Positions 30,913 to 46,944 of a DNA stretch of 64,000 nt are shown piece by piece. The stretch is from Thermoproteota archaeon. GTDB lineage: Archaea; Thermoproteota; Thermoprotei; Thermofilales; B9-G17. Both the position numbers and the translations under genes were made by a program. The notes below the pieces were generated by a model that was given only the letters and a program-made list of their open reading frames with translations, searched no databases and had not been told where the DNA came from. The stretch covers positions 64,001 through 128,000 of the forward strand of contig JAPDJW010000003.1 in NCBI GenBank assembly GCA_029258885.1. The letters run 5' to 3'. How positions within the stretch are numbered: position 1 is the first letter of the stretch; every line of letters starts with the position of its first letter.

Positions 30913-33876
30913 ATGTTCAATAAAACTCTGCTCACAGTAATAATTATAGTTCTTATATTACATATTCAACTGCTTCACGCCAAACCTAAGAGCTACAGTG
31001 TTATTATATTTAGAGTGTATGGTGCGCCAGGAAAAATTAAAGCTTCAATAAATATAGAGGGAATAGGGACCTATACGAATATTTCAACAAGCAAAGGAGT
31101 TTTATGCTTCTATATACCGGGAGGCTTTAAAGATAGAATATTATATGCTGAGCTAACTATTGAAGGTAAATGGTATATATCACTACATGGAGAGCCCACC
31201 TATACTAAAGTTTACATAGACGGTAGGCGTAGATGGATTAAAGAGTACCCTGAGGTTCTATATTTAATAAATATTAGCGATTATCCAAGGAATATTTCAA
31301 GGTACTATGTTAAGATCACCCTCATAAAGGATCAGGAATATTCGCTTAATGGAACCACATATACTTTTTATAGGGAAATAGAGTTACATCTTAGGAAGCC
31401 TAGGTTGTTTATAACTAAATCTGTACGCATTACTTTAGATAATCCATTTAGGATAAGGATATTCTTCAGGAATTTAATATTTAATTTAGATAATTCCGTA
31501 TTTGTATGTCCACCTGAAGCCCCTGAGGCTCAAGTCTTATTATCTATGAATGTTCCAGCCAGTTCGGGAACATATTCTGATGAGTACACTTTCAATGTAT
31601 CCTTAATCGACCTACCAACTTATGGAGGATTTTTCGATCTAAGAACATACCTAATTCGTAAGATAGGTAATATTATAGTTGAGAGATATGGGGAGATGGT
31701 CGGCTTAAGTAGGTTCTTAGGCGTAAGCGCAAAGGTATATGAGTATAAGTTACATGCTATTAAGGGTTTACTTAATGCATCATGTTATATGTCAAAGAGC
31801 GGTAGTCAAGGATTTAATACAGCTTTAACAAAGGCTGTTGCCATATACTTCGAGCTAAGAAGTAGCTTAAGACATGCTATGCTTCAATCTTTCCTTTATA
31901 TGCCTATGGTTATTGCCTGCATTTTTATTTTCTCTTCTATAATTTCAAAGATATTTATAGAGAAAAGAAGGTATATTGTTACTGCATTAGTTTTTATTGC
32001 TATATTAATGATAATGTTCACATATTCCTACGAATTTAGGCTCTTCATATATACTTGGAGAGAACTGTCAGAACCTTACTCAAGCCTACAGCTTATACCG
32101 GGAGCAATAAGATATAACTATATTCTTGCTGGAGCTTTTACATTACTTCTCGGACTTTTCGCTTCAGTTTTCTTCTCCTATATAATACTATCTTCGGATA
32201 GACTAAACTATACATATCTCATTTTTAAGCGGAGGAAACTTAGACTAGCGCTTATAATAGTGACTGTTTCCATAGTTTCCTCAGCCATCATAGTTCATGG
32301 AGCTTTCATAAGCGGTCCAGTTGAAAAGGTGAGTTACAGGAGCCAATATTCTGAATACTACTTCATCACGTTTTATGGTTACCTCATTAATAGGAAATAT
32401 ATTCAAACAGTTGATGGAATAGTTCTAAAAGACTTAAGCAAATATACCTATCTTAGCCTGGGAGAATATCTCTGGATCTCTAATTTCTCCAGCGACTCTA
32501 ATGTAGTGGCTAAGAAGATAGTTAAGGTAAGCTATGGCGATAAAACAACTTATTTAAATGCCTATGCACTAAATCTAAGCTTTACAGCTAAATATCTAGA
32601 ATTTTATAGGTATGTTAACGGGTCTATAAACGGTGCGCTGCTTAGTAGCAGGGCATTTAATGAGCTGAACATATCTATTGGTAATTCTATTTCAGTTGAC
32701 GGCATTAGCTACGTAGTTTCAGGTTATTTCAACTATAGCATAATTAACTTGAAGGATTTGGACGGGGACCCGCTTTTCCGTGATCCAGTTAAAGGCGTAT
32801 TTGAAGCTCCTGATCTAATAGTTCCATTAAATGCTATAGACTCTACGTGGGCGATTATAAAAATTAGTATAATACTTAATTCGCTCAACGACATATCTAA
32901 AGCCCTTACGTATATAAGGGAAGGAGGCACAGTCATCAGGGGAATTGCTGAGCCTGATGGTTTTAATATAGTAGGCTATACTTATAGCTGCCTAATAGGC
33001 GGGGAGGGCGGGATAGTGGAAAGGGTATATGTGGATCTTCAGGGCGCGATAGTTGGCGATTGGATCGTACAAGCGGTTATAGTAGCCATATCCGTTCTTA
33101 TGATATCAATTAATGCTTTAGCCAGCTCAATTGAGAGGAGAAGAGAGTTTAAAACAATTTCATGTCTTGGAGCAAATCCAAGCTATATAATCGTTGAAGT
33201 TATATCGGAGGGTGCATCCATAGGTATCATTAGTGGTCTATTAGGATACTTTGTAGGAGAGATACTAGTATTTGCATACTGGAATATTTTAGGGACGGCT
33301 ACAATGTTTCCTCGAGTCCATATGGGTAGCTTAGTGTTAGCTCTACTAGTATCTATGATTTCAACTATTATGGGTTATCTATTGCCAGCTAGGAATGCTA
33401 TAAAAAATATTATTCCAAGCCAGCTAATAGAGAGGAGAAAGGGTAAATTCATCAGGACTTCGAGTAGTGAAATAAAGCTTACGCCTATTATTAAGTTAAA
33501 GTCTGATGAACTAAACATGTTTAAGGATTTCATGTTAACACGTTTTGTTAGATCATTGAATGAAGAGGGATTATACGGAATACGCATATATGACGTTAGG
33601 CTAATAGAGGATGAGAAAGTGCTGAGAATTGTTATGAATGGATATTTCAAGAGCCCATTTACATCCAAGAACATTGAGTTAAATATAATTACGATCCTAA
33701 AGCTTGATGAGGAGATGCTTCAGCCAGTTTTTGTAATAAAGTCAAAATACTTAAACCTAATGTTCTCGAGCGATTTAATAAATTTAATTAATAGAATAAG
33801 GGAGGCTTTAATGGAGTATATAAGTTTCAAGAAGGAAAAGCTTTTCATAAAGAGGATTCCTGTCGGGAATGCCTAA
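30913..33876 (+). CDS. large MacB/FtsX-type permease (987 aa)
   Basis: Signal peptide, ~330-aa ectodomain, TM bundle, MacB-like external domain, SIERRREFKTISCLGANP FtsX motif, cytoplasmic C-tail. Confidence 0.8.
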   Translation: MFNKTLLTVIIIVLILHIQLLHAKPKSYSVIIFRVYGAPGKIKASINIEGIGTYTNISTSKGVLCFYIPGGFKDRILYAELTIEGKWYISLHGEPTYTKVYIDGRRRWIKEYPEVLYLINISDYPRNISRYYVKITLIKDQEYSLNGTTYTFYREIELHLRKPRLFITKSVRITLDNPFRIRIFFRNLIFNLDNSVFVCPPEAPEAQVLLSMNVPASSGTYSDEYTFNVSLIDLPTYGGFFDLRTYLIRKIGNIIVERYGEMVGLSRFLGVSAKVYEYKLHAIKGLLNASCYMSKSGSQGFNTALTKAVAIYFELRSSLRHAMLQSFLYMPMVIACIFIFSSIISKIFIEKRRYIVTALVFIAILMIMFTYSYEFRLFIYTWRELSEPYSSLQLIPGAIRYNYILAGAFTLLLGLFASVFFSYIILSSDRLNYTYLIFKRRKLRLALIIVTVSIVSSAIIVHGAFISGPVEKVSYRSQYSEYYFITFYGYLINRKYIQTVDGIVLKDLSKYTYLSLGEYLWISNFSSDSNVVAKKIVKVSYGDKTTYLNAYALNLSFTAKYLEFYRYVNGSINGALLSSRAFNELNISIGNSISVDGISYVVSGYFNYSIINLKDLDGDPLFRDPVKGVFEAPDLIVPLNAIDSTWAIIKISIILNSLNDISKALTYIREGGTVIRGIAEPDGFNIVGYTYSCLIGGEGGIVERVYVDLQGAIVGDWIVQAVIVAISVLMISINALASSIERRREFKTISCLGANPSYIIVEVISEGASIGIISGLLGYFVGEILVFAYWNILGTATMFPRVHMGSLVLALLVSMISTIMGYLLPARNAIKNIIPSQLIERRKGKFIRTSSSEIKLTPIIKLKSDELNMFKDFMLTRFVRSLNEEGLYGIRIYDVRLIEDEKVLRIVMNGYFKSPFTSKNIELNIITILKLDEEMLQPVFVIKSKYLNLMFSSDLINLINRIREALMEYISFKKEKLFIKRIPVGNA

Positions 33877-35945
33877 CTTTTTAAATACAGGATAATACTC
33901 CTTGGAGGTATTTTCAGTTTTTCACCATTTAACTTAAAGCTGGAATCTTTGTCTGTGTAGTTTATAATCAATATCACCCTATTATCGCCTAACCGCCATG
34001 CGGAGATTAGAACAGGTTTTGTCTTTAATTTAACTACCTCTACTTCGTGGGGCAGCGTGTAGATTGATCTCCTAAGCAACCTTATATCGAGTTCATCTTC
34101 GATTTCAGCGCATAATTTATCAATATATCCTCCGAAGATGTATGGCCTTAAAGCCCCATACATGAGGGCTAAATTAATGAAAAACTTGATTTCTTTAACA
34201 TGTTTCTTAAGTACTTCAAGCGTTAGGTTGTGTATTGTTGGGATACAGCCCCACGAGAGAGCCCTCGAAGTCTCTAATGAAAATTGAAGTTCCTTATCAT
34301 ATAGTGGCTTATAGGAAAGCTCTGGCTTTTTATCTTCAGGCCATAGTTCATCGTAAGGAGGTTTATCCGTAAGCATTGCATAGCTTCCATAGAATAGTAT
34401 GTAGCCATTATATACGTAGTTAAAGAGTGGGATGGGACGCCATTTACCATGTATGGCTCTATACCTGCCGTACCTTTCTGAACTATTATCCAGCACGAGG
34501 AATAAGTGGAATAGATCCAAGTATGCCTCAGAGCACTCCTCGGTTGCTAAAATAACATCTCCTTTAACCTCCCTATATATTTCCTCTATTATGCGTCGAT
34601 ACCCCTCAACCCAGTAATTTCCACCGCCCAAACTGTGACCATGCTCTTTATCATAGCAGAGGGGAGGGGCTGCTGCTGCAATTTGATCCAGATATACTCC
34701 ATCAACTCCGTATTCAAGTACAAGCTTCTTAACCATGCTAACGATCTTGTTCCTCCAAAAGCCTGTATAAGGACACATCACAGCCATTGGGTGATCCATG
34801 AATCTATTATAGTGCTCCTCATACAGTTCACCAGCAGAATTCTTAGTAGCATATTTATATGCCTTTTCATCTGTCCAGCTTTTACACGTTGTATCCCATA
34901 GTCTAGCATTAACGTAGATTATAGTTACGAAGCCCCTTTCACGTAGTTCCTTAACAGTTTCAATAAACTTATCCTCTCCATCTCTGGGAGGAAAGTATTC
35001 GGGGACGTTAACATCGTAGGGATTTGAATGCCACCAGTGCCACATTAGACCTATTCTTCCGTAAGGGGCAAGGTGTCTAAATCTTATCGCTGGATCAGCG
35101 ACTTTATCACATCTGCCCCTATTCCAGATCCAACAAACAACTTCCTTAAGCCTCTCAGGAAAATCGTCTCTATTTATTATCTTGCCCCGCCTACACCACC
35201 ACTGCTTTAAGCCCCATCTCCTATACTTATCCGCAGCATCCATCCAGTTGCCGTCAAAGGGCAGTATATGCATGCTATATGGAATCGTTAATAAGCTACT
35301 ACCAATGCCTTCATCTGGAGGAAAGTATGTAAAACACACACTCTTCCCTGAGGATATTCTTAGCTCCTTAACGTAGCCCTTGCTATCGTCAAGGAACGCT
35401 ACTAATCCGCTTCTCCCAATACTATAGCCGAAGAACTGCATTGATAGGGGAGACGGATACCTGTATTTTAAGTAGTGTTTCTTTAAGGTCTCCTGAGGCT
35501 TAAAGACTTCTATGCCTTGATGATCAGGTATTATCAATGAGGCACTTAAACTATCGCTGTTTCCAAGATGGATAAAAGGATAAGATATTTCGCGTATCTC
35601 GAGACTGGGGGCTTTAGTTACCATTAGCTTAAGCTTTACTCCTCCGTATTGGCTAGGGCTAAGGGAAGCTACTACCTCCTTGATTTCTTTAAATGGAAAC
35701 TCTCTCCATTTTAAATATACTATATCTCTCTCGTGTTCGCATGTAAAATATTCGGCGGATTTCGAATCTACGTCTTTTAGAGATTTTATCAGCCACAGCT
35801 CTTTTTCTTCGTCAATTCTAGATATAGTTACTTTCTTCTCTAGATCCTCTATAGCTCTAATGCATCCCCTATTACCTAGCTCAATACCTATTTTTCCGAA
35901 CCTAAAAAATATATTATTTGAATCTCTTTGAGCTGAATTTATCAA
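33873..35945 (-). CDS. putative glycoside hydrolase (DUF6259-like, TIM barrel)
   Basis: N-terminal beta-sandwich, WHWW...PEYFP, YVNARLWD, GVDGVYLDQ, TEECSE; no signal peptide. Confidence 0.7.
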   Translation of the reverse strand: MINSAQRDSNNIFFRFGKIGIELGNRGCIRAIEDLEKKVTISRIDEEKELWLIKSLKDVDSKSAEYFTCEHERDIVYLKWREFPFKEIKEVVASLSPSQYGGVKLKLMVTKAPSLEIREISYPFIHLGNSDSLSASLIIPDHQGIEVFKPQETLKKHYLKYRYPSPLSMQFFGYSIGRSGLVAFLDDSKGYVKELRISSGKSVCFTYFPPDEGIGSSLLTIPYSMHILPFDGNWMDAADKYRRWGLKQWWCRRGKIINRDDFPERLKEVVCWIWNRGRCDKVADPAIRFRHLAPYGRIGLMWHWWHSNPYDVNVPEYFPPRDGEDKFIETVKELRERGFVTIIYVNARLWDTTCKSWTDEKAYKYATKNSAGELYEEHYNRFMDHPMAVMCPYTGFWRNKIVSMVKKLVLEYGVDGVYLDQIAAAAPPLCYDKEHGHSLGGGNYWVEGYRRIIEEIYREVKGDVILATEECSEAYLDLFHLFLVLDNSSERYGRYRAIHGKWRPIPLFNYVYNGYILFYGSYAMLTDKPPYDELWPEDKKPELSYKPLYDKELQFSLETSRALSWGCIPTIHNLTLEVLKKHVKEIKFFINLALMYGALRPYIFGGYIDKLCAEIEDELDIRLLRRSIYTLPHEVEVVKLKTKPVLISAWRLGDNRVILIINYTDKDSSFKLNGEKLKIPPRSIILYLKS

Positions 35946-38900
35946 TATATTCCCTCCTCATTTCAGGCTTTAGCGATCTCCAAACTAGAAGCTGCTTCCT
36001 AATGGCGTCTATAAAGTTCCTGCTTGATAACACCCACGTATCATATACTCCGCTAAGCCTTCTAAGCATAATATCTAGGAAGTGTCTATCCCCTCTCCTT
36101 ATCACGGTTATAGTGGCCTTAGTTATTATCTTAGCCTCATAGGGGGCAAGCGATAAAACTATGTCAACTGAAGGAACCTCGGGATCGAACTTAACTTCCC
36201 TTATAATAAACTTCTCAACGGTTTCCCTCTTATGAAGCTCGGCATATTCGTACAGGAATAGCAGTGCGCCGCCCGCCTCTAGGATGTTCGTGAATACGAA
36301 TGGAAGAGGTATTTCCCATTCATCGCCTCTTGGCTTTGTGGGGAGCTCCCACTTTCTAGCTAGGGATGGCGTTACAAGCCTAGCGGCCTTGTAAATCGGG
36401 TATATGGAGGGGATTAGGGTTGCTGCCATGGCGAAAATCATCGAGAAGAGCACGGCCATTGAGGTATAGTTTACTATGAATGTCTCTGGAAGTACGTTGA
36501 ATGCCTTAAGTATGTGATTGAAGAGTAGGCCTAGCGTGTATCCCACTAGCGTCGATATGAAGGCGAAAACTAATAACTCGCCTAAGAATAGGAAAATGAC
36601 GCCGGACGGCGGAAGACCTAAGGCTGAATAAATACTCATTTCCCTCTCCCTCATCTTGAGGACATTCAACATGCTGTTTAATATAGTGCCTGATCCGATC
36701 AGCAGAGGTATTAGTATGAATGCAAGCCCCCTAAACTCGTAGGCCGGAAGCCTAGAGAACAGCGAGACCTTGCCATTATAGCTATAGTATACTTCAAGAT
36801 CTAGGCTCATTGCGATAGTTCTGGCGATATCCTCTCCCTCCTCCTTCAGGTATATAGATATGCTCGATACATGTCCACCAAGTCTTTTAACTAAATTATG
36901 AGGAAGTATTAGTACTTCGCTAGCTGATAGGGGTACATAGCTATCGGATCCTCCGGGAACCGATTTCTTGAGGGTTGCAACCATGAGATTTGGATTAAAT
37001 GGCATAATGCTCTCCTGATCGAGATCCAGGTAGCTGTTAATTACATCTGATGCAACTATGCCTACAACCTTAAGCTTCATACCCTGCCACCACACCCAGT
37101 CTCCAACGCTCACGTTAAGTTTCTCGGATACCTTATCCGCCAGGATACATGCATAGTAGTCGTACTCATCGAAGCCCCTGCCCTCTACGATGCTTGACCT
37201 GAACAATTCATTATATTTAAATTCACCCGGTGAGAGGCCTAGGGCAGCATATATCACAGTTTTCTTATCTTTTGCTTCCAAATATGCAAACACCTGGTCT
37301 CCAAATACGGATTGAGGATAGTACCACAGTCTTGGAGCTACCGCGCCTCTATCGCCTACCATCGACCTAAGGTATTCTATTATTGAGTAGCTTAGAAAGT
37401 CCTTAGTAGTCTTCATCCCCTTTCTCATGTATATTCCGTTATACCTGGCTTCTACTGGGAGTTCGGTGCGCTTTAGCGTTACGAAGCTTTCAATTGAGGT
37501 TAGTGAAACCATGCTTAAAACGATGATTATTATTGTTAAGAATAATAATATGCTCAGGAACTTTCTCCTCCTAATATTTCCCATTGCAACGTGTACCGAG
37601 TGGATTATTATTGACGTTCTCTCCCTCTCAACTACGTGATGTTTAAGTATCTTCCTTCTGATCATTGATCCCATTTCTATTGCAGACTTCGTTAACACGA
37701 TACCGACTATTCCGAAGAAGAGAAGGGTCGATAGGCCAAGGTAGGCGATCGGTATATTTGCTACAAGCCTAAGGCTTGGATGAAGGAAATAAAATATCAC
37801 CAGGATGAGTGATGCGATAATTAGTATTGTAAAAAGCCTTTTAAGTCCTTCAAACTGGAGGGTTATTCTCTCTATAAAGAATACGGATGGTATTAGTAGG
37901 AAGAAGAAGAATACGCTTATAATTGCGGGTTCATTAACTAGCCTCATGACCTCACTATAGTATACCATCCCAAGGCTCCACGAGGCTAGGGCATAAGCAT
38001 ATGCTTTACTATATTTCCTTTCCTTCAGACTGGCTAGGCATAGGCTATGATACTCTTCCATGGCCTTTATGTTCTCCTCTAAAGCTATGTTCTCGATCAT
38101 ATTCTTCTTTAGGTTAGAGTATCTGGTTGAGATTATTGTGGCTATGTCGTTGGAGGCATTAATTGCTGAGAGTATTATCTCAGCGCCTCTCTGAACCTTA
38201 TAGCCGTAGCCGTCTGGATGAAGCTGTGACGAATTAATAAGAACTACTGAAGTTCTCTTTTCAGGTCCTACCTTCAATATAAGTGCAAACCTTGAACCCG
38301 GAGGCGTGAATATAGTCGCTATTCCCTCGCTGGGTACATAGACGAAGCCATACCTTATGAACTCGCTTAGGGTGGAGACATCGTATATCATAATCGTTGG
38401 AACCATATTTACCCATGGAGTATTAAGGAATCTAGAATCTAAAAGCACGGGCTCGGATATTCTGGATATATCGTAAAGATCAATGATTGTTGCCGAAGCG
38501 CAGGAGAAGACTACCGTTGTAAGCTGGTATGGATGTGAATCCACTAGACTCCAGAATAGTATTGATTTCGAGCCATACTGACCTAGATCGGGGGCCTTAA
38601 CTATGAGGCCTGTATTCCCATCTAGAAGGTATGCTTCGGTATAATATCCTATACCTTCCTTCTGCAGTATTTGTACTCCGCCAGCTCCCCAAAGCACGGT
38701 CCCGCCTATGGCTGAGCCTACTCCTAGACCATGCACGACAAACCCGCCGGTTTCATTACATTTAACTATGATGTGCATGAAGGGGTATGTTGAGCTTGGA
38801 CTCCTTGTAACCACTGCAAGGGCATATGGAACTCTGTCGTACCAGTTCTTAGTGTAATTAAATTCTAGTACCTTACCGTAGGCTGTTATAAACCCTGCTA

Positions 38901-40365
38901 GCTCGCCAGCCGGGCTATAGAATATTCTACTGGGCTTAACCATGCTCCAGTCAACGGAGAATTCGGGATCGTTCACAAAGCCATAAATTATTGCCGATGA
39001 AGCTAATGCTTGAATCCTAATATTCTCAAGATTGACGTATTTGATATCGCTCTTAGGAGTACCCCATCTATGTCTCAGTGAACCGCAGGTTCTAAGTGCA
39101 AGCCCCATTCCATGGGCCATGGTAACGGGCTCTATATCCAGCATAAATGGCCCAGAGATATCATCCCACCATCCCTCAACCACTAAGCCGTTCTCCACTA
39201 TACTCCCTAAATCTACGCCCAGCTGAGCCGATGCATCCTTAAGGTATTTATCGAAAACGTTTGGTATAACGTATTTCTGATACTTACTTAGAACTTGAAC
39301 GCTACCATAATCGTAGAAGTATCCTCTATAAGTTAATAATAGCCTATTATTATCCGACGATAGATCCAAGCCTACTACTACAAGTAGCTTCCTCTCACCA
39401 CTAATTATATCTTCAGAACCAAAGATAGCTTTCTCCATAAACTCCCTTGCGCCAGCAAGTGCCTGCCAGTGTCCCGAAACGAATACTAACCATAAGGTTC
39501 TCAGTGGTCTATTTTTAGAGAAGTATTCAGCTAAAAGGAGGAGTAGTGAGGGCGAAGTAGCTTCGTCCGCCCCAGGAGCTATAGCTGGGACAACAGACCA
39601 AGTATCGTAGTGTGCAATAACTGCTACTATCTCATCCTTCCTCTCACCCTCTATCTCCGCAACTATAATACTTGACTTTACAATTTCATAGTCCATGTTC
39701 ACGTGTATCCTAATTACCGAGTGATTTTCAGCTAACTGCTTAAGTAAAGCTCCTGTTTCACGATCAACATATAATCTGGGGAAGTACACGGGGGCTGAGG
39801 ATATCTTAGCTATAGCCTCCGGATAGCTGGTTTCATCAGGCTCTATAAATATAACCCCCCTGGCGCCAAACCTTAGCAGGTTTATCCAATTCTTTCCAGA
39901 GTTGAATTCAATCAGGGCTATGGAACCATATATATCCTTGTCGTCCAAATCCTCTAAATCCCCATCCCCAACATAGACAAGCCGTCCCTCAATTCCGGTT
40001 GGAGGAGTTTTACATGTCTGAACGTAGTTAGGCCAAAGAGCATAGGCGTTAAGCCTTAGACTTACGGGTTCAATAACTTCTATGTAAGAGCTCCTGTCAA
40101 GCGGCACCGTAACCTCGTATTCAATGATCCTATAACTCACGTTTATTTCCTTAAGTCGACTTACTATGAAGTTAGCTGCATCATTGCATCCACTGTACCC
40201 CGTAACCCTTGAGCCAAAGCTGGATAGCTTCTCAATATATTCTTTTAGCTTATTTACGTCGATACTATTGGCTAAACCTTCATAATCCATGGGTGGTGTT
40301 GCCTTAACATATGCTTGTAGGGCAAGTAAAAGTATTAGTAGCATTAGAGCTATTCTTGCCTTCAT
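35914..40365 (-). CDS. giant MacB/FtsX-type permease with N-terminal PA + M28-fold ectodomain
   Basis: Signal peptide MKARIAL (ATG 40365 preferred to 40425); SSFGSRVTGY, PA domain, AHYDT, APGADE, SGHW, LDLSSD; REREMSIYSALGL FtsX motif. Confidence 0.85.
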   Translation of the reverse strand: MKARIALMLLILLLALQAYVKATPPMDYEGLANSIDVNKLKEYIEKLSSFGSRVTGYSGCNDAANFIVSRLKEINVSYRIIEYEVTVPLDRSSYIEVIEPVSLRLNAYALWPNYVQTCKTPPTGIEGRLVYVGDGDLEDLDDKDIYGSIALIEFNSGKNWINLLRFGARGVIFIEPDETSYPEAIAKISSAPVYFPRLYVDRETGALLKQLAENHSVIRIHVNMDYEIVKSSIIVAEIEGERKDEIVAVIAHYDTWSVVPAIAPGADEATSPSLLLLLAEYFSKNRPLRTLWLVFVSGHWQALAGAREFMEKAIFGSEDIISGERKLLVVVGLDLSSDNNRLLLTYRGYFYDYGSVQVLSKYQKYVIPNVFDKYLKDASAQLGVDLGSIVENGLVVEGWWDDISGPFMLDIEPVTMAHGMGLALRTCGSLRHRWGTPKSDIKYVNLENIRIQALASSAIIYGFVNDPEFSVDWSMVKPSRIFYSPAGELAGFITAYGKVLEFNYTKNWYDRVPYALAVVTRSPSSTYPFMHIIVKCNETGGFVVHGLGVGSAIGGTVLWGAGGVQILQKEGIGYYTEAYLLDGNTGLIVKAPDLGQYGSKSILFWSLVDSHPYQLTTVVFSCASATIIDLYDISRISEPVLLDSRFLNTPWVNMVPTIMIYDVSTLSEFIRYGFVYVPSEGIATIFTPPGSRFALILKVGPEKRTSVVLINSSQLHPDGYGYKVQRGAEIILSAINASNDIATIISTRYSNLKKNMIENIALEENIKAMEEYHSLCLASLKERKYSKAYAYALASWSLGMVYYSEVMRLVNEPAIISVFFFFLLIPSVFFIERITLQFEGLKRLFTILIIASLILVIFYFLHPSLRLVANIPIAYLGLSTLLFFGIVGIVLTKSAIEMGSMIRRKILKHHVVERERTSIIIHSVHVAMGNIRRRKFLSILLFLTIIIIVLSMVSLTSIESFVTLKRTELPVEARYNGIYMRKGMKTTKDFLSYSIIEYLRSMVGDRGAVAPRLWYYPQSVFGDQVFAYLEAKDKKTVIYAALGLSPGEFKYNELFRSSIVEGRGFDEYDYYACILADKVSEKLNVSVGDWVWWQGMKLKVVGIVASDVINSYLDLDQESIMPFNPNLMVATLKKSVPGGSDSYVPLSASEVLILPHNLVKRLGGHVSSISIYLKEEGEDIARTIAMSLDLEVYYSYNGKVSLFSRLPAYEFRGLAFILIPLLIGSGTILNSMLNVLKMREREMSIYSALGLPPSGVIFLFLGELLVFAFISTLVGYTLGLLFNHILKAFNVLPETFIVNYTSMAVLFSMIFAMAATLIPSIYPIYKAARLVTPSLARKWELPTKPRGDEWEIPLPFVFTNILEAGGALLFLYEYAELHKRETVEKFIIREVKFDPEVPSVDIVLSLAPYEAKIITKATITVIRRGDRHFLDIMLRRLSGVYDTWVLSSRNFIDAIRKQLLVWRSLKPEMRREYIDKFSSKRFK

Positions 40366-40421
40366 TGATCGACACCTGATATATTTATCTGAGAACATAT
40401 TAATTTGTATGTTCATAATCG

Positions 40422-42389
40422 TCACCAGGGAAGTATCCAGGTAGCCTTAGACAACATAACGATCGACGTGGCTATGCCCACTACGACTGCTTCGCCTGTA
40501 GCTACTCCAGCTACTATAACGCCTCTATTCTTCCTCCACCAGTTCTCCCCGTACATTCTGGCCAGAAATCTGGCGATAATAGCGCCTATAATAAGACTTA
40601 TCGAGTTTGCGGGCAGTATATATGTCCCGGCGACGAGGCCGACTATGGAGAAGGGGAAGTTAAGGATTCTACTTAAAGTATCCCCGATAAACGCTACAGC
40701 TAACACCAGTATGAAGGAGTACAATATGGTGTCAACCTTCACTCCTATCTGTCTGCTAATCCACAACGCGCTTGTAGCTACGCTTACAGGCCACTGTATG
40801 TTCGTGAATGGGTATAGCGACGAGGGTATTGGAGCTATGCTCCAGAAGAAGGATACGTATATGAAGCTAAATACCGTATAGAGTACGACGGCCGTAAAAT
40901 ATGCCTTAAAGAAGTCCTCGGGCCTTGTCTCTGTTAGGAAGGCTGCCTTTATGGTGTTTCCCCATTGGGGCGAAGCTGTGAAAGGTAGGCCAAGCTGGGA
41001 TACTGTCGGAGTTAAACCGCTGAACATGGGGGAGAAGAGCCATGCATCCACCTTAGGATATCCTGAGCCAATTACGGCAAGCTGCCATATATAGGGTATC
41101 GATATCGGATAGCCTGATTCAGCTATGCTTCTTGAAGCAACCAGCGAGTAGGTGAATCCTCCCCCTATAGCGATTAAGATCGCCAGCCATAGGGGGAAGT
41201 CGGGTACTATTAGATGAAACAGCAGTATTGATCCCAGAGATCCTGCTAAATAGAGCGTAGCTAGCGTTTTCAGACTTATATATCCCTTCCTTAAGACGTC
41301 AGTCCTAAGTCTGGATAGGCTCTTAAATGCCGATACAATGCTTCTTCTACTCTTAAATATTGAGAACACGGCTACCGCTAGTGCAAAGCCTATAAATGGA
41401 GTTATCCATACCCTGAGGAAGGATCTTTGGTAAACGGTTGATATGGTCATGCCTCTTGCCCATTCAATAGCCCATTCCTTAAAGTAATTAGCTAAGTAAG
41501 TTCTAGTTAGATAATTGCCGAAAACCCATACAGCTATTGATCCTATAAACATATAGACCACGGTGTGGAATGGAATTAAGAATGCTCCAGTAAATGTTAG
41601 AGGATCTGTTGCGAGGCCTAAGATAGCGCCCGGAAGGATATTTTCGATCCCAAAGGGGCCAGTAGTCAAATCGAGCCATGGAATTGGTATTACAACAATT
41701 CGGGTATTAAATAGACCTAACGAAATCGTCGGAACCCCATAGAGTATTATCGAATATATGGCGCCTAAAATAGCACTTGTTGTGAATATTCTCATCCTAT
41801 CCTCCTCTCTCTCAGCTAATGTAATGCACATCTGGGCTGGAAACTCGGCAAAGGGATAGGGTAGCTTCTCTTCCTCTATGAAGATGTAGGCCATTATGTA
41901 TGCTAACGCAACTTCCTGAATAAGCCATAAAAATATCTGAACCAAATATAGTGAGACTGGTATTATCCACTTTGAATTAAGAAAGCTTCTAACGGCTGTA
42001 GCTGGTAGTCTGGGAACCCACCATTCAGGAATTACTTCACTTAGAGGTTTTCCAGAATAAGGATCGTAGAAGGACTTCGATATGGGCGAAGTGAAGAAGT
42101 AAAATCTATAGACGAACTCTAAAAATGGAGCTCCTAAGAGAACTGGCGCTGCGGCCTGATATATTATGAATATCTCCTGCTTAGTTAGGGGCTTATCCAT
42201 AAGCCTCGAAATTTCTGTAAAAAGTATTGCGGTTATGTATGTTATAGCGCTTGCTAGGATAGCACCTGAAGTAAGCTGAATATATATCGATACCGGGAGT
42301 AGGAGTGAAGCTGCAACAAATATCGCAAGAAAAGATCTAAATGTATATCCTTTTTTTAAAACATATTCTTCACTCACATAATCACCCAT
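40422..42389 (-). CDS. OPT-superfamily-like multipass membrane transporter
   Basis: Over 12 TM; GYTFRS, KQEIF, EEEKLPYP motifs. Confidence 0.75.
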   Translation of the reverse strand: MGDYVSEEYVLKKGYTFRSFLAIFVAASLLLPVSIYIQLTSGAILASAITYITAILFTEISRLMDKPLTKQEIFIIYQAAAPVLLGAPFLEFVYRFYFFTSPISKSFYDPYSGKPLSEVIPEWWVPRLPATAVRSFLNSKWIIPVSLYLVQIFLWLIQEVALAYIMAYIFIEEEKLPYPFAEFPAQMCITLAEREEDRMRIFTTSAILGAIYSIILYGVPTISLGLFNTRIVVIPIPWLDLTTGPFGIENILPGAILGLATDPLTFTGAFLIPFHTVVYMFIGSIAVWVFGNYLTRTYLANYFKEWAIEWARGMTISTVYQRSFLRVWITPFIGFALAVAVFSIFKSRRSIVSAFKSLSRLRTDVLRKGYISLKTLATLYLAGSLGSILLFHLIVPDFPLWLAILIAIGGGFTYSLVASRSIAESGYPISIPYIWQLAVIGSGYPKVDAWLFSPMFSGLTPTVSQLGLPFTASPQWGNTIKAAFLTETRPEDFFKAYFTAVVLYTVFSFIYVSFFWSIAPIPSSLYPFTNIQWPVSVATSALWISRQIGVKVDTILYSFILVLAVAFIGDTLSRILNFPFSIVGLVAGTYILPANSISLIIGAIIARFLARMYGENWWRKNRGVIVAGVATGEAVVVGIATSIVMLSKATWILPW

Positions 42390-42436: not shown

Positions 42437-44449
42437 CTACATGAGCTTAGGCAGACCTATCATGAATGTTGCTAGGAACGCTACTAGGGAGGCGTTTACT
42501 CCGTAGCCTACTAGGTATCCGATTATAAACGGTGTAGCCTTCTCTTCAAACAGTTTTGATCCTCCAATTCTAAGTATTATATATTTGATTATTAGTGAGA
42601 ATATTGGCGGTATCCAAACCCATGTTGTAGTTGGTAATATTAGGAATGCCAATGGATCTATGAAGAACCACGCAAACTTTGTCCTAAGGAAGTAGAGTAT
42701 GAAGGTAATTATTATTCCGCCTATCATTAGACCATATCTCTCAGCCGGATCGAATGCTAATATTGTTGGAGTCCCCTTAACCCATGAATATACTTCAGGC
42801 GATACCCACATATAGAAGGGTGGGCCTGGGGGTCCATTGTTAGCTAAACCTCCGATTGCGTGGTACCACCATATAACTAGCGGTGTAGTTATGATTGCAG
42901 CGGATATAATGGTTATCACTGCGGTGAAGAATAAGTCTCTTCCAAGAGTGTTTGTTGTGGGGCCGAGCCTATATATCTTAAACTGGTGGTGCATTGTAAG
43001 GTTGCTTATTCTCTGCCCGGTGTTAGCTGCACCAGTTACTAAGGTGAATGTAACTAATGCCGTCTGGTTTTCAGCTGGTGGAACTGGAGGCCATGCACCC
43101 ATTATTGCGCCAGCATCATATCTAAACCAGTTAAAGGCATGCCCATAGGGCATGAACTCGAAAGATACTCCCATAAGCCTTGTCCATCCATATAGCATTA
43201 GTATGTGGAGTATCATGAATACAAGTACTACTAGGAATGGAACACCGCTACCTAGTAAGAATATTAGGAACAATATTGATATAGCTACTGTGCCGACTGA
43301 TAGCAGCCTATATGATAAGCCGCTGTCCTCCATTTTAGCATACTCCTTATCCCATAAGGCCCTAAGTATATTCAGGAAGTGTTCCCTGTGGTTATAGACG
43401 ACCCACAGACCTACGCCGAGACCTATACCCCAGATACAGAATAGGTGCCACTTAAATGGACCATATCTTAAACCATAGTACGCGGCATTTGTCTCTACGC
43501 CCGGGCTATAGGGTAGTATTCCCGTGGTAACTCCTACTACTGGATATAGCACTGCGAATATAAACCAGCCTATAATAATTGTTATCAAGAAGTCAGTTGG
43601 CGTAAACATCCATATTAGAATGTCAGTAACTCTAACGTTTCCATAGAAGAAGGCTCCCGGAAGTATACCCTTAGTATAGGGAGTTAAGTCGATTGTGTAA
43701 ACGCCCAGATAGGCGGAAGAAGGTACGGTAGGTATGAAGTATCTTAGGGTATCTAAGAAGGTCATTAGGAATCCGAGCACGAAAGCAACCCAGAATATCT
43801 TAGTAGCCGTATTCTTAAAGTTAAATAGCCAAACCTTACCGTCAACCTCCTTAGTAGCATATTCTATTAGGTAGACGCCTGGAAGTATGCCGGGGAACGG
43901 AAGCTGCTCAACCTCTATCAGCGGTTTTCTAAGCCAGTATCCCCAGAATGTCTCGAACAACATGTAGAGTATAAGGAATAGAGTCCAGTAGATTATATGT
44001 GGCATCCATGCGCCCCAGTCCAGGTATCCGCCATTCCAGAAGTTTTCTAATGCAGTGCCGCTTGGAGAGAAGTATGGTGGTATCATATCCCATACATCCT
44101 TAAATGCCTCAGTATGCCTCATATAAACTGGAATAAGCTGAGCCCAACTGGGTATCTGGCAGGTGCTATAGGCGCCTGACATATATACTCCATATGTGAA
44201 TGTGTTAGCTACCAGGAAGAAGAGGGCGAAGAGTATAGCGTACTCTTGAGGAGCTAGTTTAATCTTATTCCTCAGTAGGTAGAGTATCACTATTACGACT
44301 ATGAAGGGTGGAGGGAACCATACCCTATAAGCCCACCATAGTGTAAGCGATGAGTTAATAATTGACTGGAAGAAGTTTAGTAGTACGACAATGGGTATCA
44401 GTACAATTATCCATGGTTTAAGATAACTCCTTCTAACTTCCTCTCCCAT
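42437..44449 (-). CDS. DUF6785-like multipass membrane protein (OPT-related)
   Basis: Over 12 TM; IEVEQLPFP, FFIDP, IGGSKLFEE; ATG 44449 after GGTG. Confidence 0.7.
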   Translation of the reverse strand: MGEEVRRSYLKPWIIVLIPIVVLLNFFQSIINSSLTLWWAYRVWFPPPFIVVIVILYLLRNKIKLAPQEYAILFALFFLVANTFTYGVYMSGAYSTCQIPSWAQLIPVYMRHTEAFKDVWDMIPPYFSPSGTALENFWNGGYLDWGAWMPHIIYWTLFLILYMLFETFWGYWLRKPLIEVEQLPFPGILPGVYLIEYATKEVDGKVWLFNFKNTATKIFWVAFVLGFLMTFLDTLRYFIPTVPSSAYLGVYTIDLTPYTKGILPGAFFYGNVRVTDILIWMFTPTDFLITIIIGWFIFAVLYPVVGVTTGILPYSPGVETNAAYYGLRYGPFKWHLFCIWGIGLGVGLWVVYNHREHFLNILRALWDKEYAKMEDSGLSYRLLSVGTVAISILFLIFLLGSGVPFLVVLVFMILHILMLYGWTRLMGVSFEFMPYGHAFNWFRYDAGAIMGAWPPVPPAENQTALVTFTLVTGAANTGQRISNLTMHHQFKIYRLGPTTNTLGRDLFFTAVITIISAAIITTPLVIWWYHAIGGLANNGPPGPPFYMWVSPEVYSWVKGTPTILAFDPAERYGLMIGGIIITFILYFLRTKFAWFFIDPLAFLILPTTTWVWIPPIFSLIIKYIILRIGGSKLFEEKATPFIIGYLVGYGVNASLVAFLATFMIGLPKLM

Positions 44450-44622
44450 AAGAAACACCAATGTAAAATAAAATTTTAAGTATTTAAGTTTGGATATTTT
44501 TATTAATCAAAAAATTTTTTTAAAATTTAAAAATATTTATATTCAAGAAAATAATATAAAATATGGTTTTAAATTTGCTTTAGAATAAAGATTTAGCATT
44601 AACTTGGAATTCTATTATTGAG

Positions 44623-44861: not shown

Positions 44862-45305
44862 GTGGAGTGTATGGAGTCTGATAAAACCTTTGAAGCTATT
44901 GCTCATCCATTAAGGATAAAGATATTGAAGTTGCTGGCAGAGAGACCTATGAGTTTCTCCGAGTTAAAGAGGAGGCTTGGAATAAAGAGTAGCGGTAAGC
45001 TGGATTTCCACTTGAAGAAACTAGACAACTTAATAGTTTTAGATGAAGATGGAAAATACACGTTGACTAGAGAGGGCTATGCGGCACTACAGGCTATTAT
45101 CACAATTAAAAGGTATGGATGGCAGAAGAGAGCCTTCATATTAAATACAGCAGTCTACATTGCGGTTATGATCTATACAGAGTGTGTTATAGTGTGGAGA
45201 GGATTTAGCCCGCTATACGTTGCTGTAATGGTGCTTACATCACTCTGGTACGTATACTACTTCTATGTATCTATTGTGAAGAGGAAGGTCTTTAAAGTAT
45301 GTTAG
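44862..45305 (+). CDS. ArsR-type HTH regulator with two C-terminal TM helices
   Basis: AIAHPLRIKILKLL...SFSELKRRLG...LDFHLKKL, then hydrophobic tail. Confidence 0.85.
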   Translation: MECMESDKTFEAIAHPLRIKILKLLAERPMSFSELKRRLGIKSSGKLDFHLKKLDNLIVLDEDGKYTLTREGYAALQAIITIKRYGWQKRAFILNTAVYIAVMIYTECVIVWRGFSPLYVAVMVLTSLWYVYYFYVSIVKRKVFKVC

Positions 45306-45346
45306 GGGGCGAGTTTTCGTAGGCTGATGAAGGGGGTGCTGGAGGC

Positions 45347-46273
45347 ATGGGGATGAGGGTTATTGAGGTTGAAAATTTAGCTAAAGAGTTCAATGGGAGA
45401 ACAGTGCTACGTGGGATAACTTTCCACGTTAGGAGGGGTGAGGTCTTTGGTCTACTTGGACCTAATGGTTCGGGTAAAACAACGACGATGAGGATAATTC
45501 TTGGATTGCTTAAGCCGACTTCGGGGAAGGTACGTGTTCTCGGCGGTTCGCTGGCGGACGACGCCAAGCTTAGGAGTAGAGTCGGCGTAGTGTTGGAGGG
45601 TGATGGCTTGTTTACTAGACTTTCAGCCTATGAAAATCTCGACTTTTACGCTAGAATCTACGGGTTAAGGGACGGTGTGGAGAGAAGAGAGAGGATTAGG
45701 GAGCTACTGGAGCTCGTAGGCTTATATGATGTGAGAAATATGAAGGTGGGTTATTTTTCCAAGGGTATGAGGAGGAGGCTTGCGCTAGCTAGAGCACTAA
45801 TTCACTATCCTGAAGTATTGCTTCTCGATGAGCCGACTTCTGGTTTAGACCCTGAGGCGAAGGCTATGGTAAGGGATCTGGTGATCAAGCTCTCTAGGGG
45901 TGATGGAGTAACAGTTCTCTATACATCCCATGACCTGAATGAGGTTGAAAAAGTATGCTCTAGGATAGCAGTGCTAGTGAAAGGTAGGATAATAGTTCAA
46001 GGTGTGCTTAACGACCTACTTGAGGAATGTAGCGGACAGGTAATGGAGGTATGTTTCACTAGTAGTGATGATGCGTCTAAAGCTTTCGAGTACTTGAGGA
46101 TGTTGGACTATGTACCAGAATGCAGGATGTATGGGAAAACTGTGCATCTGGTAACACTTGGCAATACACGCAGGCTTCTAAGAGACCTTGTGGAAATGAA
46201 CCTTGGAGTTGAGGAGGTAAGGAGGGTAAGGAGGACTCTCGAGGAGATATATCTAGAGCTTGTTAGGAGGTGA
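45347..46273 (+). CDS. ABC exporter ATP-binding subunit
   Basis: GPNGSGKT, FSKGMRRR, LLDEP, TSH. Confidence 0.95.
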   Translation: MGMRVIEVENLAKEFNGRTVLRGITFHVRRGEVFGLLGPNGSGKTTTMRIILGLLKPTSGKVRVLGGSLADDAKLRSRVGVVLEGDGLFTRLSAYENLDFYARIYGLRDGVERRERIRELLELVGLYDVRNMKVGYFSKGMRRRLALARALIHYPEVLLLDEPTSGLDPEAKAMVRDLVIKLSRGDGVTVLYTSHDLNEVEKVCSRIAVLVKGRIIVQGVLNDLLEECSGQVMEVCFTSSDDASKAFEYLRMLDYVPECRMYGKTVHLVTLGNTRRLLRDLVEMNLGVEEVRRVRRTLEEIYLELVRR

Positions 46274-46944
46274 ACTCAAATATGATAGGAGTTATTGTAT
46301 GGAAAGAGCTTAAGGAGAGTACGAGGGACAGAAACCTACTATCCAGTATAGTGGGCGTAGCAATACTATTAATGCTTTTAAATTTATCGTCGAGATTCCC
46401 AACCGTCAGTGTGGAGTTTCTTGTACTCTATATGGCGCCGTGTATAGGCGTTTTCATAGGATTTAGTATGAGCAGTAGATTTGTAAGGGAGAAGCGGGAG
46501 GGAACTATAGAGACTATGCTCTGTACTCCGCTGACGCTGAAAGAACTATGGCTTGGTAAAGTAATTGGACTAGCATTACCATCATATGCCGTTACCTTAA
46601 CCTCAATGCTTATTCTAGCATATTTTAAAGGCTATATCATGAAGGAGGCTATAACGATATATTTAACGCTGGCAGTGCCCATCCTCATAGCATCGGTTAT
46701 TGGTTTACTCGGATTCCTCTATTACGTCCTAGGTATGAGGCAAATACAAGCACTTAACTACCTAGTATTCCTTACATTATTCACATTATTCTTCGCATTA
46801 ACTAGGAGCTTAACGAGAGGGGTCATCACTATAACGTGGGAGATTATAGGAGCTGTGCTGGCCTTCTCAGCAATGATTCTGTACATAGTAGCCTATCTGA
46901 TAACTCGCCTAGACAAGGAGAGGATAGTAACCACACTAGACTAA
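46270..46944 (+). CDS. ABC-2 type exporter permease
   Basis: EKREGTIETMLCTP...GK motif; 6 TM. Confidence 0.9.
   Translation: MNSNMIGVIVWKELKESTRDRNLLSSIVGVAILLMLLNLSSRFPTVSVEFLVLYMAPCIGVFIGFSMSSRFVREKREGTIETMLCTPLTLKELWLGKVIGLALPSYAVTLTSMLILAYFKGYIMKEAITIYLTLAVPILIASVIGLLGFLYYVLGMRQIQALNYLVFLTLFTLFFALTRSLTRGVITITWEIIGAVLAFSAMILYIVAYLITRLDKERIVTTLD

Follow-up and report, generated by a model that had tools for sequence, protein, structure and literature searches.

Here we describe a three-gene membrane module, F-O-D, in a 64,000-nucleotide stretch of the genome of a Thermoproteota archaeon (Thermofilales, B9-G17; GenBank assembly GCA_029258885.1, contig JAPDJW010000003.1, positions 64,001 to 128,000 of the forward strand). 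This whole stretch is the window that we analyzed, and all coordinates below refer to it unless another contig is named. Gene F encodes a protein in which a head with the fold of PA-domain-containing M28 aminopeptidases is joined to a permease of the FtsX/MacB type; the head has lost the catalytic and ligand glutamates, and this loss extends across the family. Genes O and D encode two homologous membrane proteins, one of them a member of the OPT family by Pfam, and accompany F in most of the loci in which F was found. We favor, at a probability of about 0.55, the interpretation that the triad is a carbohydrate uptake system in which F is a non-catalytic capture head serving an OPT-like importer.

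The peptidase-like head of F and the loss of its catalytic residues

Gene F is a single minus-strand open reading frame (ORF) spanning 35914-40425, which, by the ORF list and its translation, encodes a PA-M28/FtsX fusion protein. The frame is open from a GTG at 40425, but the true start is likely the ATG at 40365 (M21, MKARIAL...), and the database copy of the protein (P0002) has 1483 residues. Residue numbers below count from the GTG. The parts of the gene are as follows.

35914..40365, minus strand: gene F, PA-M28/FtsX fusion (ORF list, translation, Pfam; database copy of 1483 amino acids)
40297..40365, minus strand: signal peptide or anchor, residues 21-43 (hydropathy peak 2.08)
38890..40296, minus strand: PA+M28 pseudo-peptidase head, residues 44-512 (AF2, Foldseek, VIA)
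39691..40023, minus strand: PA insert, approximately residues 135-245 (alignment to the PA domain of 2ek8; conservation profile)
37927..38889, minus strand: putative stalk of two beta-sandwiches and a three-helix bundle, residues 513-833 (AF2, Foldseek, VIA)
37687..37926, minus strand: three extra transmembrane (TM) helices ahead of the FtsX module, residues 834-913 (hydropathy, conservation)
36391..37686, minus strand: MacB/FtsX permease module (Pfam; phmmer to MacB, LolC and LolF in the PDB)
35917..36390, minus strand: conserved C-terminal cytoplasmic domain, residues 1346-1503 (conservation profile)

Three Pfam families match F above their cut-offs: Peptidase_M28 (PF04389) at residues 254-405 (38.2 bits, cut-off 21.3), MacB_PCD (PF12704) at residues 962-1149 (30.6 bits) and FtsX (PF02687) at residues 1235-1349 (47.7 bits). 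Given the long ORF, the significant Pfam match and more than 1000 relatives at the cluster level, the M28 match is not a chance one. There is one FtsX domain in F. Hydropathy analysis delineates seven TM helices (834-852, 863-881, 892-913, 956-978, 1233-1253, 1272-1300 and 1320-1343). The permease module comprises a basic cytoplasmic loop followed by TM1 (914-978, with the loop itself at 914-955), a periplasmic core (979-1232) and TM2-4 (1233-1345), the latter segment containing a conserved coupling-helix motif. In the predicted topology, residues 44-833 and the MacB core domain would be extracellular, and the C-terminal 158 residues would be cytoplasmic. P883, in the region of the extra TM helices, is invariant, and in the C-terminal domain R1357, W1359, W1370, W1464, Q1478 and W1482 are each at least 98% conserved; this domain yielded no Pfam match and no usable match in a feature search of the ESM Atlas.

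A model of residues 40-515 built with AlphaFold2 (AF2) on 120 relatives has a mean pLDDT of 96.8. Foldseek places the aminopeptidase 2ek8 first among the matches of the head (E 6e-27), followed by PaAP, BSAP and 3iib, and then by GCPII and the transferrin receptor (TfR); a structure search of the Atlas returned ordinary M28/PA clusters only. VIA aligns the head with BSAP over 377 residues (Z 31.1) and with the PA-less aminopeptidase AAP (1amp) over 266 residues (Z 29.3, root-mean-square deviation 2.4 A). The PA insertion claimed in a reading of the DNA made from the sequence alone, hereafter the sequence-only reading, is thus borne out, with 377-400 residues aligning to PA-bearing aminopeptidases versus 266 to AAP; the PA insert accounts for the approximately 110-180 head residues left unaligned to AAP. 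The PA domain (PF02225) is recorded on relatives of F, although Pfam did not call it on F itself at E<=0.01, and no other stretch of F is as conserved as the insert.

In a model of residues 505-870 (pLDDT 91.7), two beta-sandwiches precede a three-helix bundle. The matches of this part are generic (transthyretin-like, CnaB and pilin folds, Z 8-9 by Foldseek and VIA), with a weak match to SlaB (Foldseek E 1.2e-4, low TM-score), and a feature search of the ESM Atlas was uninformative, with a best score of 0.82. From the model, we read residues 513-833 as a probable stalk.

The sequence-only reading covered 39360-40365, that is, F residues 21-355, and held that the AHYD and GADE ligand motifs are kept in the head, that the M28 (S/G)EE motif reads SGHW, and that the distal ligand region reads HRWGTP. 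All of these motifs are found in frame on the minus strand, the distal one beyond the 39360 boundary of that range.

39604-39615, minus strand: AHYD, residues 271-274, with H272 as a Zn2-type ligand (MAFFT, family alignment)
39562-39573, minus strand: GADE, residues 285-288, with D287 equivalent to the bridging Asp (MAFFT, hhalign)
39466-39477, minus strand: SGHW, residues 317-320 (phmmer, MAFFT, family profile, hhalign)
39361-39372, minus strand: GLDL, with D354 equivalent to the Zn2 ligand Asp (MAFFT, hhalign)
39055-39075, minus strand: RHRWGTP, residues 451-457 (family profile, family alignment)

Four independent alignments place SGHW in the same columns. A phmmer search of the PDB aligns 'VSGHWQALAGA' of F with 'FGAEENGLIGS' of the PA-bearing aminopeptidase 2ek8; MAFFT alignment with the two canonical M28 peptidases of this genome (SGEELG and SDSEETG) puts SGHW in the EE columns; and both the comparison of the family profile with the PDB and hhalign put it on the M28 '(S/G/A)-x-E-E' motif. 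Hence H319 stands in place of the catalytic general-base Glu, and W320 in place of the Zn1 ligand Glu. At the distal site, the family profile aligns 'lrlkWgtPlsdlekvn' with 'vepWYHTPnDtldkis' (2ek8 and BSAP, 6hc6), so that G455 falls on the ligand His of the first zinc and W454 on the preceding Tyr; H452 lies off the ligand position and is variable across the family. In the hhalign alignment, R445 is the counterpart of the distal His, a candidate that we rejected because the alignment ends there and because the spacing to the next helix and the T-P match favor G455. Under either alignment, the distal ligand position has no His. A fourth ligand, D354 in GLDL, absent from the sequence-only reading, is also retained. 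F therefore keeps three of the five M28 metal ligands, H272, D287 and D354, which we take to be the second-zinc half-site (H97, D117 and D179 in AAP numbering). With reference to the MEROPS description of M28, the head has the fold, but it has neither the five-ligand set nor the general-base Glu. The alignments and the FtsX and MacB Pfam matches together confirm a head without catalytic or ligand glutamates on a permease-type protein.

Residue conservation was counted over 230 aligned members of the F family, with the following results.

Position 272: H in 166/230, Tyr in 49/230
Position 274: D in 230/230, invariant
Position 277: S in 225/230
Position 287: D in 108/230
Position 288: acidic in 226/230
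Position 319: H in 190, Y in 25, F in 12 and E in 0 of 230
Position 320: W in 151, Y in 41, H in 20 and D in 1 of 230
Position 354: D or G, by subgroup
Position 432: E in 209/230
Position 455: G in 142/230
Position 457: P in 215/230

The conservation of SGH in homologs, which the sequence-only reading had named as a check, shows that the loss is family-wide, with H319 in 190 of the 230 sequences and Glu in none. The general base and both ligands of the first zinc are replaced, and the replacement is fixed across the family; the head thus no longer has the apparatus for the canonical two-zinc peptidase mechanism. Residues at the former ligand positions 287 and 354 and in the segment 452-456 are subgroup-specific, whereas the core is constant. 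The alternative offered in the same reading, a rewired His-rich metal site, does not hold as a family trait: the H-D-H-D quartet occurs in just 72/230 sequences, and because the residues at the ex-ligand positions 287 and 354 differ from one subgroup to another, we rejected a conserved rewired site. In the F of this window, a residual single-metal site formed by H272, D287 and D354, with H319 nearby, may exist. By these counts, the pocket is under selection, and the loss of its catalytic residues is not decay, yet the selection is not for a conserved metal site; the former ligand positions, together with 452-456, behave in the alignment like subgroup-specific determinants.

The protein database contains more than 220 relatives of F of approximately 1450-1560 amino acids, from Thermoprotei, Bathyarchaeia, Thermofilaceae, Ignisphaera, Tardisphaera (Tardisphaera saccharovorans) and others. 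An exhaustive profile search detected at least 1054 representatives of 50% identity clusters at E<=1e-30. The top 150 of these are nearly all full-length fusions of approximately 1450-1580 amino acids, with a few shorter records, and most of the shorter F-like forms either are labeled partial or come from short contigs. A search of the database for stand-alone short heads yielded just such partial or short-contig records and P0129, a 490-amino-acid partial protein labeled Deltaproteobacteria that is 29% identical to the head and could be a bacterial relative or come from a mis-binned contig.

Linkage of F to two OPT-like membrane proteins

Upstream of F, on the same strand, lie the two genes that complete the triad.

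40422-42389, minus strand: gene O, OPT-like membrane protein of 655 amino acids (Pfam OPT, 45 bits)
42437-44461, minus strand: gene D, DUF6785/DUF6784 membrane protein of 674 amino acids (Pfam)

O matches PF03169 with 45 bits (cut-off 25.8) over profile positions 120-615 of 623, and the Pfam matches of D are to DUF6785/6784 only. The two proteins are nevertheless homologous, with an hhalign probability of 100% and an E-value of 9e-42 over 594 columns. A sequence search of the PDB with the O profile gave no match. A complex prediction for O with F residues 826-990 scored 0.00, a value that counts neither for nor against binding.

We collected 93 F loci, 85 from public genomes and metagenomes and eight from this genome. 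O is present in 76 of these and D in 71, whereas the next most common neighbor family occurs in 14. The order of the genes varies (D-O-F, D-F-O, F-O-D, F-D-O and divergent forms). In many of the loci that lack O or D, the contig stops close to F, and one Caldarchaeales-type group of F loci has other neighbors. Among 301 sampled Thermoproteota genomes, in which related genomes are not independent, F and D occur together in 54, F alone in four, D alone in four, and neither in 239; in other words, F was found in 58 genomes, 54 of which also encode D. By family, the distribution is patchy and nearly the same for F and DUF6785. The source genome (2.1 Mb, 99.9% complete, 26 contigs) encodes eight full-length F paralogs (27-33% identity), and every one of them has a separate O and D. 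The linkage itself, that is, that F belongs with O and D and that one genome carries eight such triads, is new. DNA of the window recurs in hydrothermal-vent and marine-sediment metagenomes, with no RNA run among the listed sequencing runs.

Two further patterns were observed in the D family. Several genomes (G041, G121, G150, G185 and others) contain 20-39 DUF6785 candidates but one or two F genes, so D-like proteins also expand without an M28-FtsX partner. In the loci L027 and L029-L032, an arrangement with two D genes recurs: D, a GFO/IDH/MocA oxidoreductase, a URO-D-like protein, D, F and O.

No ABC ATPase gene adjoins the triads of this genome: of its 46 ABC_tran matches, not one is a neighbor of an F copy. 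Across the 93 F loci, ABC_tran genes occur in 11, and the ABC ATPase located 5 kb upstream in the window is paired with an ABC-2 permease. Five small FtsX proteins of the genome do have adjacent ATPases. An orphan MacB/LolD-type ABC ATPase of 246 amino acids is encoded at G000:C2:342683-343423 (G000 being this genome), with no multi-TM neighbor within 4 kb; its identity to the partner ATPase of a small FtsX permease at C2:376287-377675 is 72.6%, and it could be a trans partner, or shared engine, of the ATPase-less FtsX proteins.

Carbohydrate context, proposed function and alternatives

The triads of this genome are embedded in operons for carbohydrate catabolism that differ in specificity.

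L099 (G000:C2:96001-116000), tightly packed on one strand: Melibiase/GH31-like (alpha-galactosidase-like) protein, GalE-like protein, GalT, D, F, O, FtsX protein, GalK-like kinase, SIS, PfkB
L098: triad followed by a secreted GH57 protein and a cytoplasmic maltose-forming-amylase-like protein
L097: GH130 mannoside phosphorylase ahead of the triad
L095: GHL10, anhydro-sugar kinase and URO-D around the triad
Window triad: DUF6259 neighbor at 33873..35945, minus strand, a glycoside-hydrolase-like protein of 690 amino acids (Pfam DUF6259, 327.6 bits; weak GHL6 match)

In L099, GalT is identified by TIGR00209 (194.8 bits, cut-off 102), the FtsX protein has 957 amino acids, and the gene of the GalK-like kinase overlaps the FtsX gene by 4 nucleotides. 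This alpha-galactoside/Leloir operon looks complete, and its sole transporter candidates are the triad genes. The sugars suggested by the operons are alpha-galactosides for the copy at G000:C2:104619-109058, maltodextrins for the one at C5:90597-95051 and beta-manno-oligosaccharides for the one at C1:82832-87247. In the window, the DUF6259 gene is located downstream of F and overlaps its 3' end; the product has no signal peptide and is probably an uncharacterized cytoplasmic carbohydrate-active enzyme, judging from its Pfam matches. A sequence search of the PDB with this protein gave nothing meaningful, and its relatives in the Atlas come from Bacteroidota, Bacillota, Planctomycetota and Kiritimatiellota. 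Because the DUF6259, alpha-galactosidase-like and GH130 enzymes carry no signal peptide, they need an imported substrate.

In other genomes, we compared 127 ORFs within approximately 700 bp of triads with 119 control ORFs more than 4 kb away. The near set is richest in GFO_IDH_MocA oxidoreductases (11) and URO-D-like proteins (11); it further contains AP_endonuc_2 xylose-isomerase-like barrels (4) and the carbohydrate-binding module CBM_4_9 (3), along with GH127, GH78/106, GH2, GH42 and a sulfatase. The control set is led by ABC transporters and housekeeping genes (primase, aminotransferases), and neither GFO nor URO-D is among its top families. A sugar cargo has a precedent in the OPT family, where subcluster 4C is predicted from genome context to import xylo-oligosaccharides, and the characterized OPT transporters are cation symporters (PMC3061005).

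In the mechanism that we propose, O and D would form an ion-coupled oligosaccharide translocation path, as in characterized OPT transporters, with F as the substrate-capture or receptor subunit of the triad. The remodeled M28 pocket, lined by conserved Trp, His, Asp and Glu and bearing subgroup-specific residues at the ex-ligand positions 287 and 354 and at 452-456, would bind sugar together with the PA domain. The FtsX module would anchor the head beside O and D or relay its movements through the membrane. The window triad would import whatever substrate the cytoplasmic DUF6259 enzyme, encoded immediately downstream, acts on. The sequence-only reading had taken the ectodomain for the substrate or partner receptor of the locus; this idea has gained strong, if indirect, support from the tie of F to two OPT-like genes and from the sugar-catabolic operons around the triads, while the binding itself is something we infer. 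A further-reaching version of the same reading, which we offer only tentatively, is that F-O-D might represent an unrecognized class of archaeal oligosaccharide importer: an ATPase-less MacB/FtsX-type mechanotransducer with a dead-aminopeptidase 'lectin' head would capture extracellular glycans and gate or feed a heteromeric OPT-like pair of ion-coupled translocators, with substrate-specific copies resembling polysaccharide utilization loci.

Several considerations weigh against sugar uptake with a non-catalytic head. The functional assignment is drawn wholly from gene neighborhood, saccharolytic archaea are glycosidase-rich anyway, and the neighbor counts are inflated by related metagenome-assembled genomes. 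To our knowledge, the characterized OPT transporters carry peptides or metal chelates, and we know of MacB/FtsX modules just as ATP-driven exporters or mechanotransducers. An aminopeptidase-derived head would bind peptide N-termini more naturally than sugars. The conserved coupling-helix motif and the orphan MacB-type ATPase may leave room for an ATP-driven role. With respect to inactivity, E288, D430 or E432 may reach the old catalytic position, and H319 alone is no proof, given that the AAP E151H variant keeps some activity, according to the title of PDB entry 2anp.

The head could still be an enzyme, a single-metal (H272/D287/D354) hydrolase with His319 as the general base that works at the cell surface, trimming peptides, glycopeptides or some other polymer ahead of their uptake through O and D. 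This F keeps three of the five ligands, AAP E151H is called 'functional' in the 2anp title, D274, S277, acidic 288, H319 and E432 are strongly conserved, as in an active site, and the VIA structural matches of the head include M28-fold glutaminyl cyclases, which we take to be single-zinc enzymes. However, the retained half-site is itself not conserved across the family (D287 in 108/230, D354 replaced by Gly in subgroups, H272 by Tyr in 49/230); in single-zinc M28-fold enzymes it is the other half-site (Asp, Glu, His) that persists, the one destroyed here; and Trp320 and Trp454/Gly455 occupy the former position of the first zinc. We consider this enzymatic role unlikely. The triad might instead take up oligopeptides, the head binding their N-termini uncleaved and passing the peptides on to the OPT-like proteins. 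Such a role would suit the Pfam OPT match of O, the prediction that prokaryotic OPT homologs are mostly peptide transporters (PMC3061005) and the descent of the M28 pocket, which evolved for a free N-terminus; moreover, locus L013 is flanked on both sides by M20 peptidases, and in this genome one F paralog adjoins a C39-like peptidase and another a C25-like protein. Peptidases are rare, however, among the 127 nearest ORFs, which are dominated by sugar oxidoreductases, isomerase-like TIM barrels, carbohydrate-binding modules and glycosidases, and triads lie in a Leloir/alpha-galactoside operon and beside GH57, GH130, GHL10 and DUF6259, making peptide uptake a rather improbable function.

An assignment without any uptake would make the triad a machine for envelope maintenance similar to FtsEX-EnvC/PcsB, with an ATPase acting in trans to drive FtsX while the head acts on the S-layer or surface glycans or expels material. 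The conserved coupling-helix motif, the orphan MacB-type nucleotide-binding domain at G000:C2:342683-343423, the weak SlaB likeness of the stalk and the fact that all characterized FtsX/MacB modules known to us are mechanotransducers or exporters are compatible with this possibility. Yet eight diverged copies, each with its own O and D and set in different catabolic operons, fit substrate-specific uptake better, and whole families of S-layer-bearing Thermoproteota are without the system, so that we regard envelope maintenance as improbable. Pseudoenzyme domains can also be purely structural, in which case the head would be a spacer or oligomerization module that binds no ligand and owes its conservation to folding constraints. 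The replaced sites H319, W320, W454 and G455 are, however, among the best conserved and do not drift, the PA domain is the most conserved segment, and the subgroup-specific residues cluster at the ex-ligand positions, which renders a purely structural role highly improbable.

Under sugar uptake by the triad, OPT-like proteins and an orphan FtsX module would cooperate in import, which would assign a role to DUF6785/DUF6784 and offer a way to approach FtsX permeases without an ATPase, puzzling for a long time. In prokaryotes, the head would then mirror the use of the M28 fold as a binding module in the transferrin receptor and nicastrin, its former metal site having become an aromatic pocket. 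The chance that the triad as a whole constitutes a novel type of transporter is substantial. A literature search on the F family (FtsX, M28 and archaea), DUF6785 and DUF6259 found no relevant paper. In the NCBI and JGI records, relatives of F are named 'M28 family peptidase' or 'antimicrobial peptide ABC permease'. Since F proteins have a signal peptide and can number as many as eight in a single genome, they inflate counts of 'extracellular peptidases'. Such counts serve as an argument for a life on detrital protein in sediment archaea (Bathyarchaeia, Thermoproteota), whereas the context of F points to carbohydrates. One study has warned that such peptidase counts are poor proxies (PMC9123169).

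Related systems and other FtsX genes

Inactive members of the M28 fold are established binding modules: the transferrin receptor uses an inactive PA+M28 fold in this capacity, and nicastrin an inactive M28-like fold. TfR1, GCPII and NAALADL share with F a PA domain inserted into M28, a membrane-anchored ectodomain and an 'H-x-D-S/T-W' motif, and TfR is likewise catalytically dead; the family profile detects TfR with E 1.3e-11, and VIA aligns TfR/GCPII with Z of approximately 26-27. However, these are single-pass type II proteins with a C-terminal helical dimerization domain, two features of M28B that F does not show. The head of F is N-terminal, is followed by beta-sandwiches and a helix bundle, and is anchored C-terminally by the seven-TM FtsX part; furthermore, F keeps half of the metal ligands and is archaeal and multi-copy. 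Nicastrin, in gamma-secretase, and nicalin, in the BOS complex, resemble F as inactive M28-like ectodomains that serve multi-pass membrane complexes. Nicalin shares the 'AHYD...VAP...GAD' pattern (profile E 3e-08), but over just about 83 residues around HYD...GAD; for neither protein is there evidence of shared descent beyond the M28 fold, and their partners and functions are unrelated to those of F. Because the stalk, the anchoring and the partners all differ, we do not assign the head to either group, although by analogy it may work in a similar way to the TfR or nicastrin/nicalin ectodomains.

The best PA+M28 matches in both structure and sequence are BSAP/YwaD of Bacillus, 2ek8 of Aneurinibacillus and PaAP of Pseudomonas, which differ from F in being soluble secreted enzymes with a full H-D-EE-D-H site. 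The AAP E151H variant (2anp), with His at the catalytic Glu, is matched better by the family profile than wild-type AAP (4.4e-10 versus 3.3e-08), but it keeps both zinc sites, whereas the first-zinc ligands of F are Trp and Gly.

On the permease side, F has in common with MacB, LolCDE and FtsEX the four-TM FtsX domain, a periplasmic core between TM1 and TM2 and the conserved coupling-helix motif. Unlike these systems, F has no fused ATPase and, in the eight copies of this genome, no adjacent one; it has three additional TM helices, an N-terminal ectodomain of approximately 800 residues, a conserved C-terminal domain and an obligate OPT-like pair. The ADOP permeases (TIGR03434) are, as we take it from the TIGRFAM description, large paralogous families of FtsX permeases whose genes have no ATPase gene next to them. 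They are orphan FtsX proteins like F, but with two FtsX domains, no M28 head and a different lineage, and F scores 22.1 bits against TIGR03434, far below the cut-off of 622.3. O matches the OPT family (TC 2.A.67), but here two diverged paralogs occur together and are tied to an FtsX protein. As systems of surface capture plus translocator, the binding-protein-dependent sugar ABC importers of archaea and SusC/D of Bacteroidota are analogous to the triad, with secreted and cytoplasmic glycosidases encoded nearby and many substrate-specific copies; however, the protein families are unrelated, and the triad has no evident ATPase or TonB-type energy source.

Other FtsX and ABC genes were noted in the window and elsewhere in the genome. 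At 30913-33876 on the plus strand, the window encodes a protein of 987 amino acids that combines a signal peptide and a transthyretin-like N-terminal sequence with one FtsX domain and lacks an M28 head; its gene is convergent with the DUF6259 gene, with a 4-nucleotide overlap. The genome encodes about six such short orphan FtsX proteins of 950-1355 amino acids, one of which, at L099:3812-6685, lies inside the galactose operon next to the triad. Divergent from D in the window, at 44862-46944 on the plus strand, are genes for an ArsR/DUF7347 helix-turn-helix regulator, an ABC ATPase and an ABC-2-type permease. This operon appears to be unrelated to the triad, although its regulator might control either side. 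At G000:C1:604586-605476, an FtsX permease gene lies beside an ABC ATPase gene interrupted by TAA stops, probably a decaying MacB-type pair.

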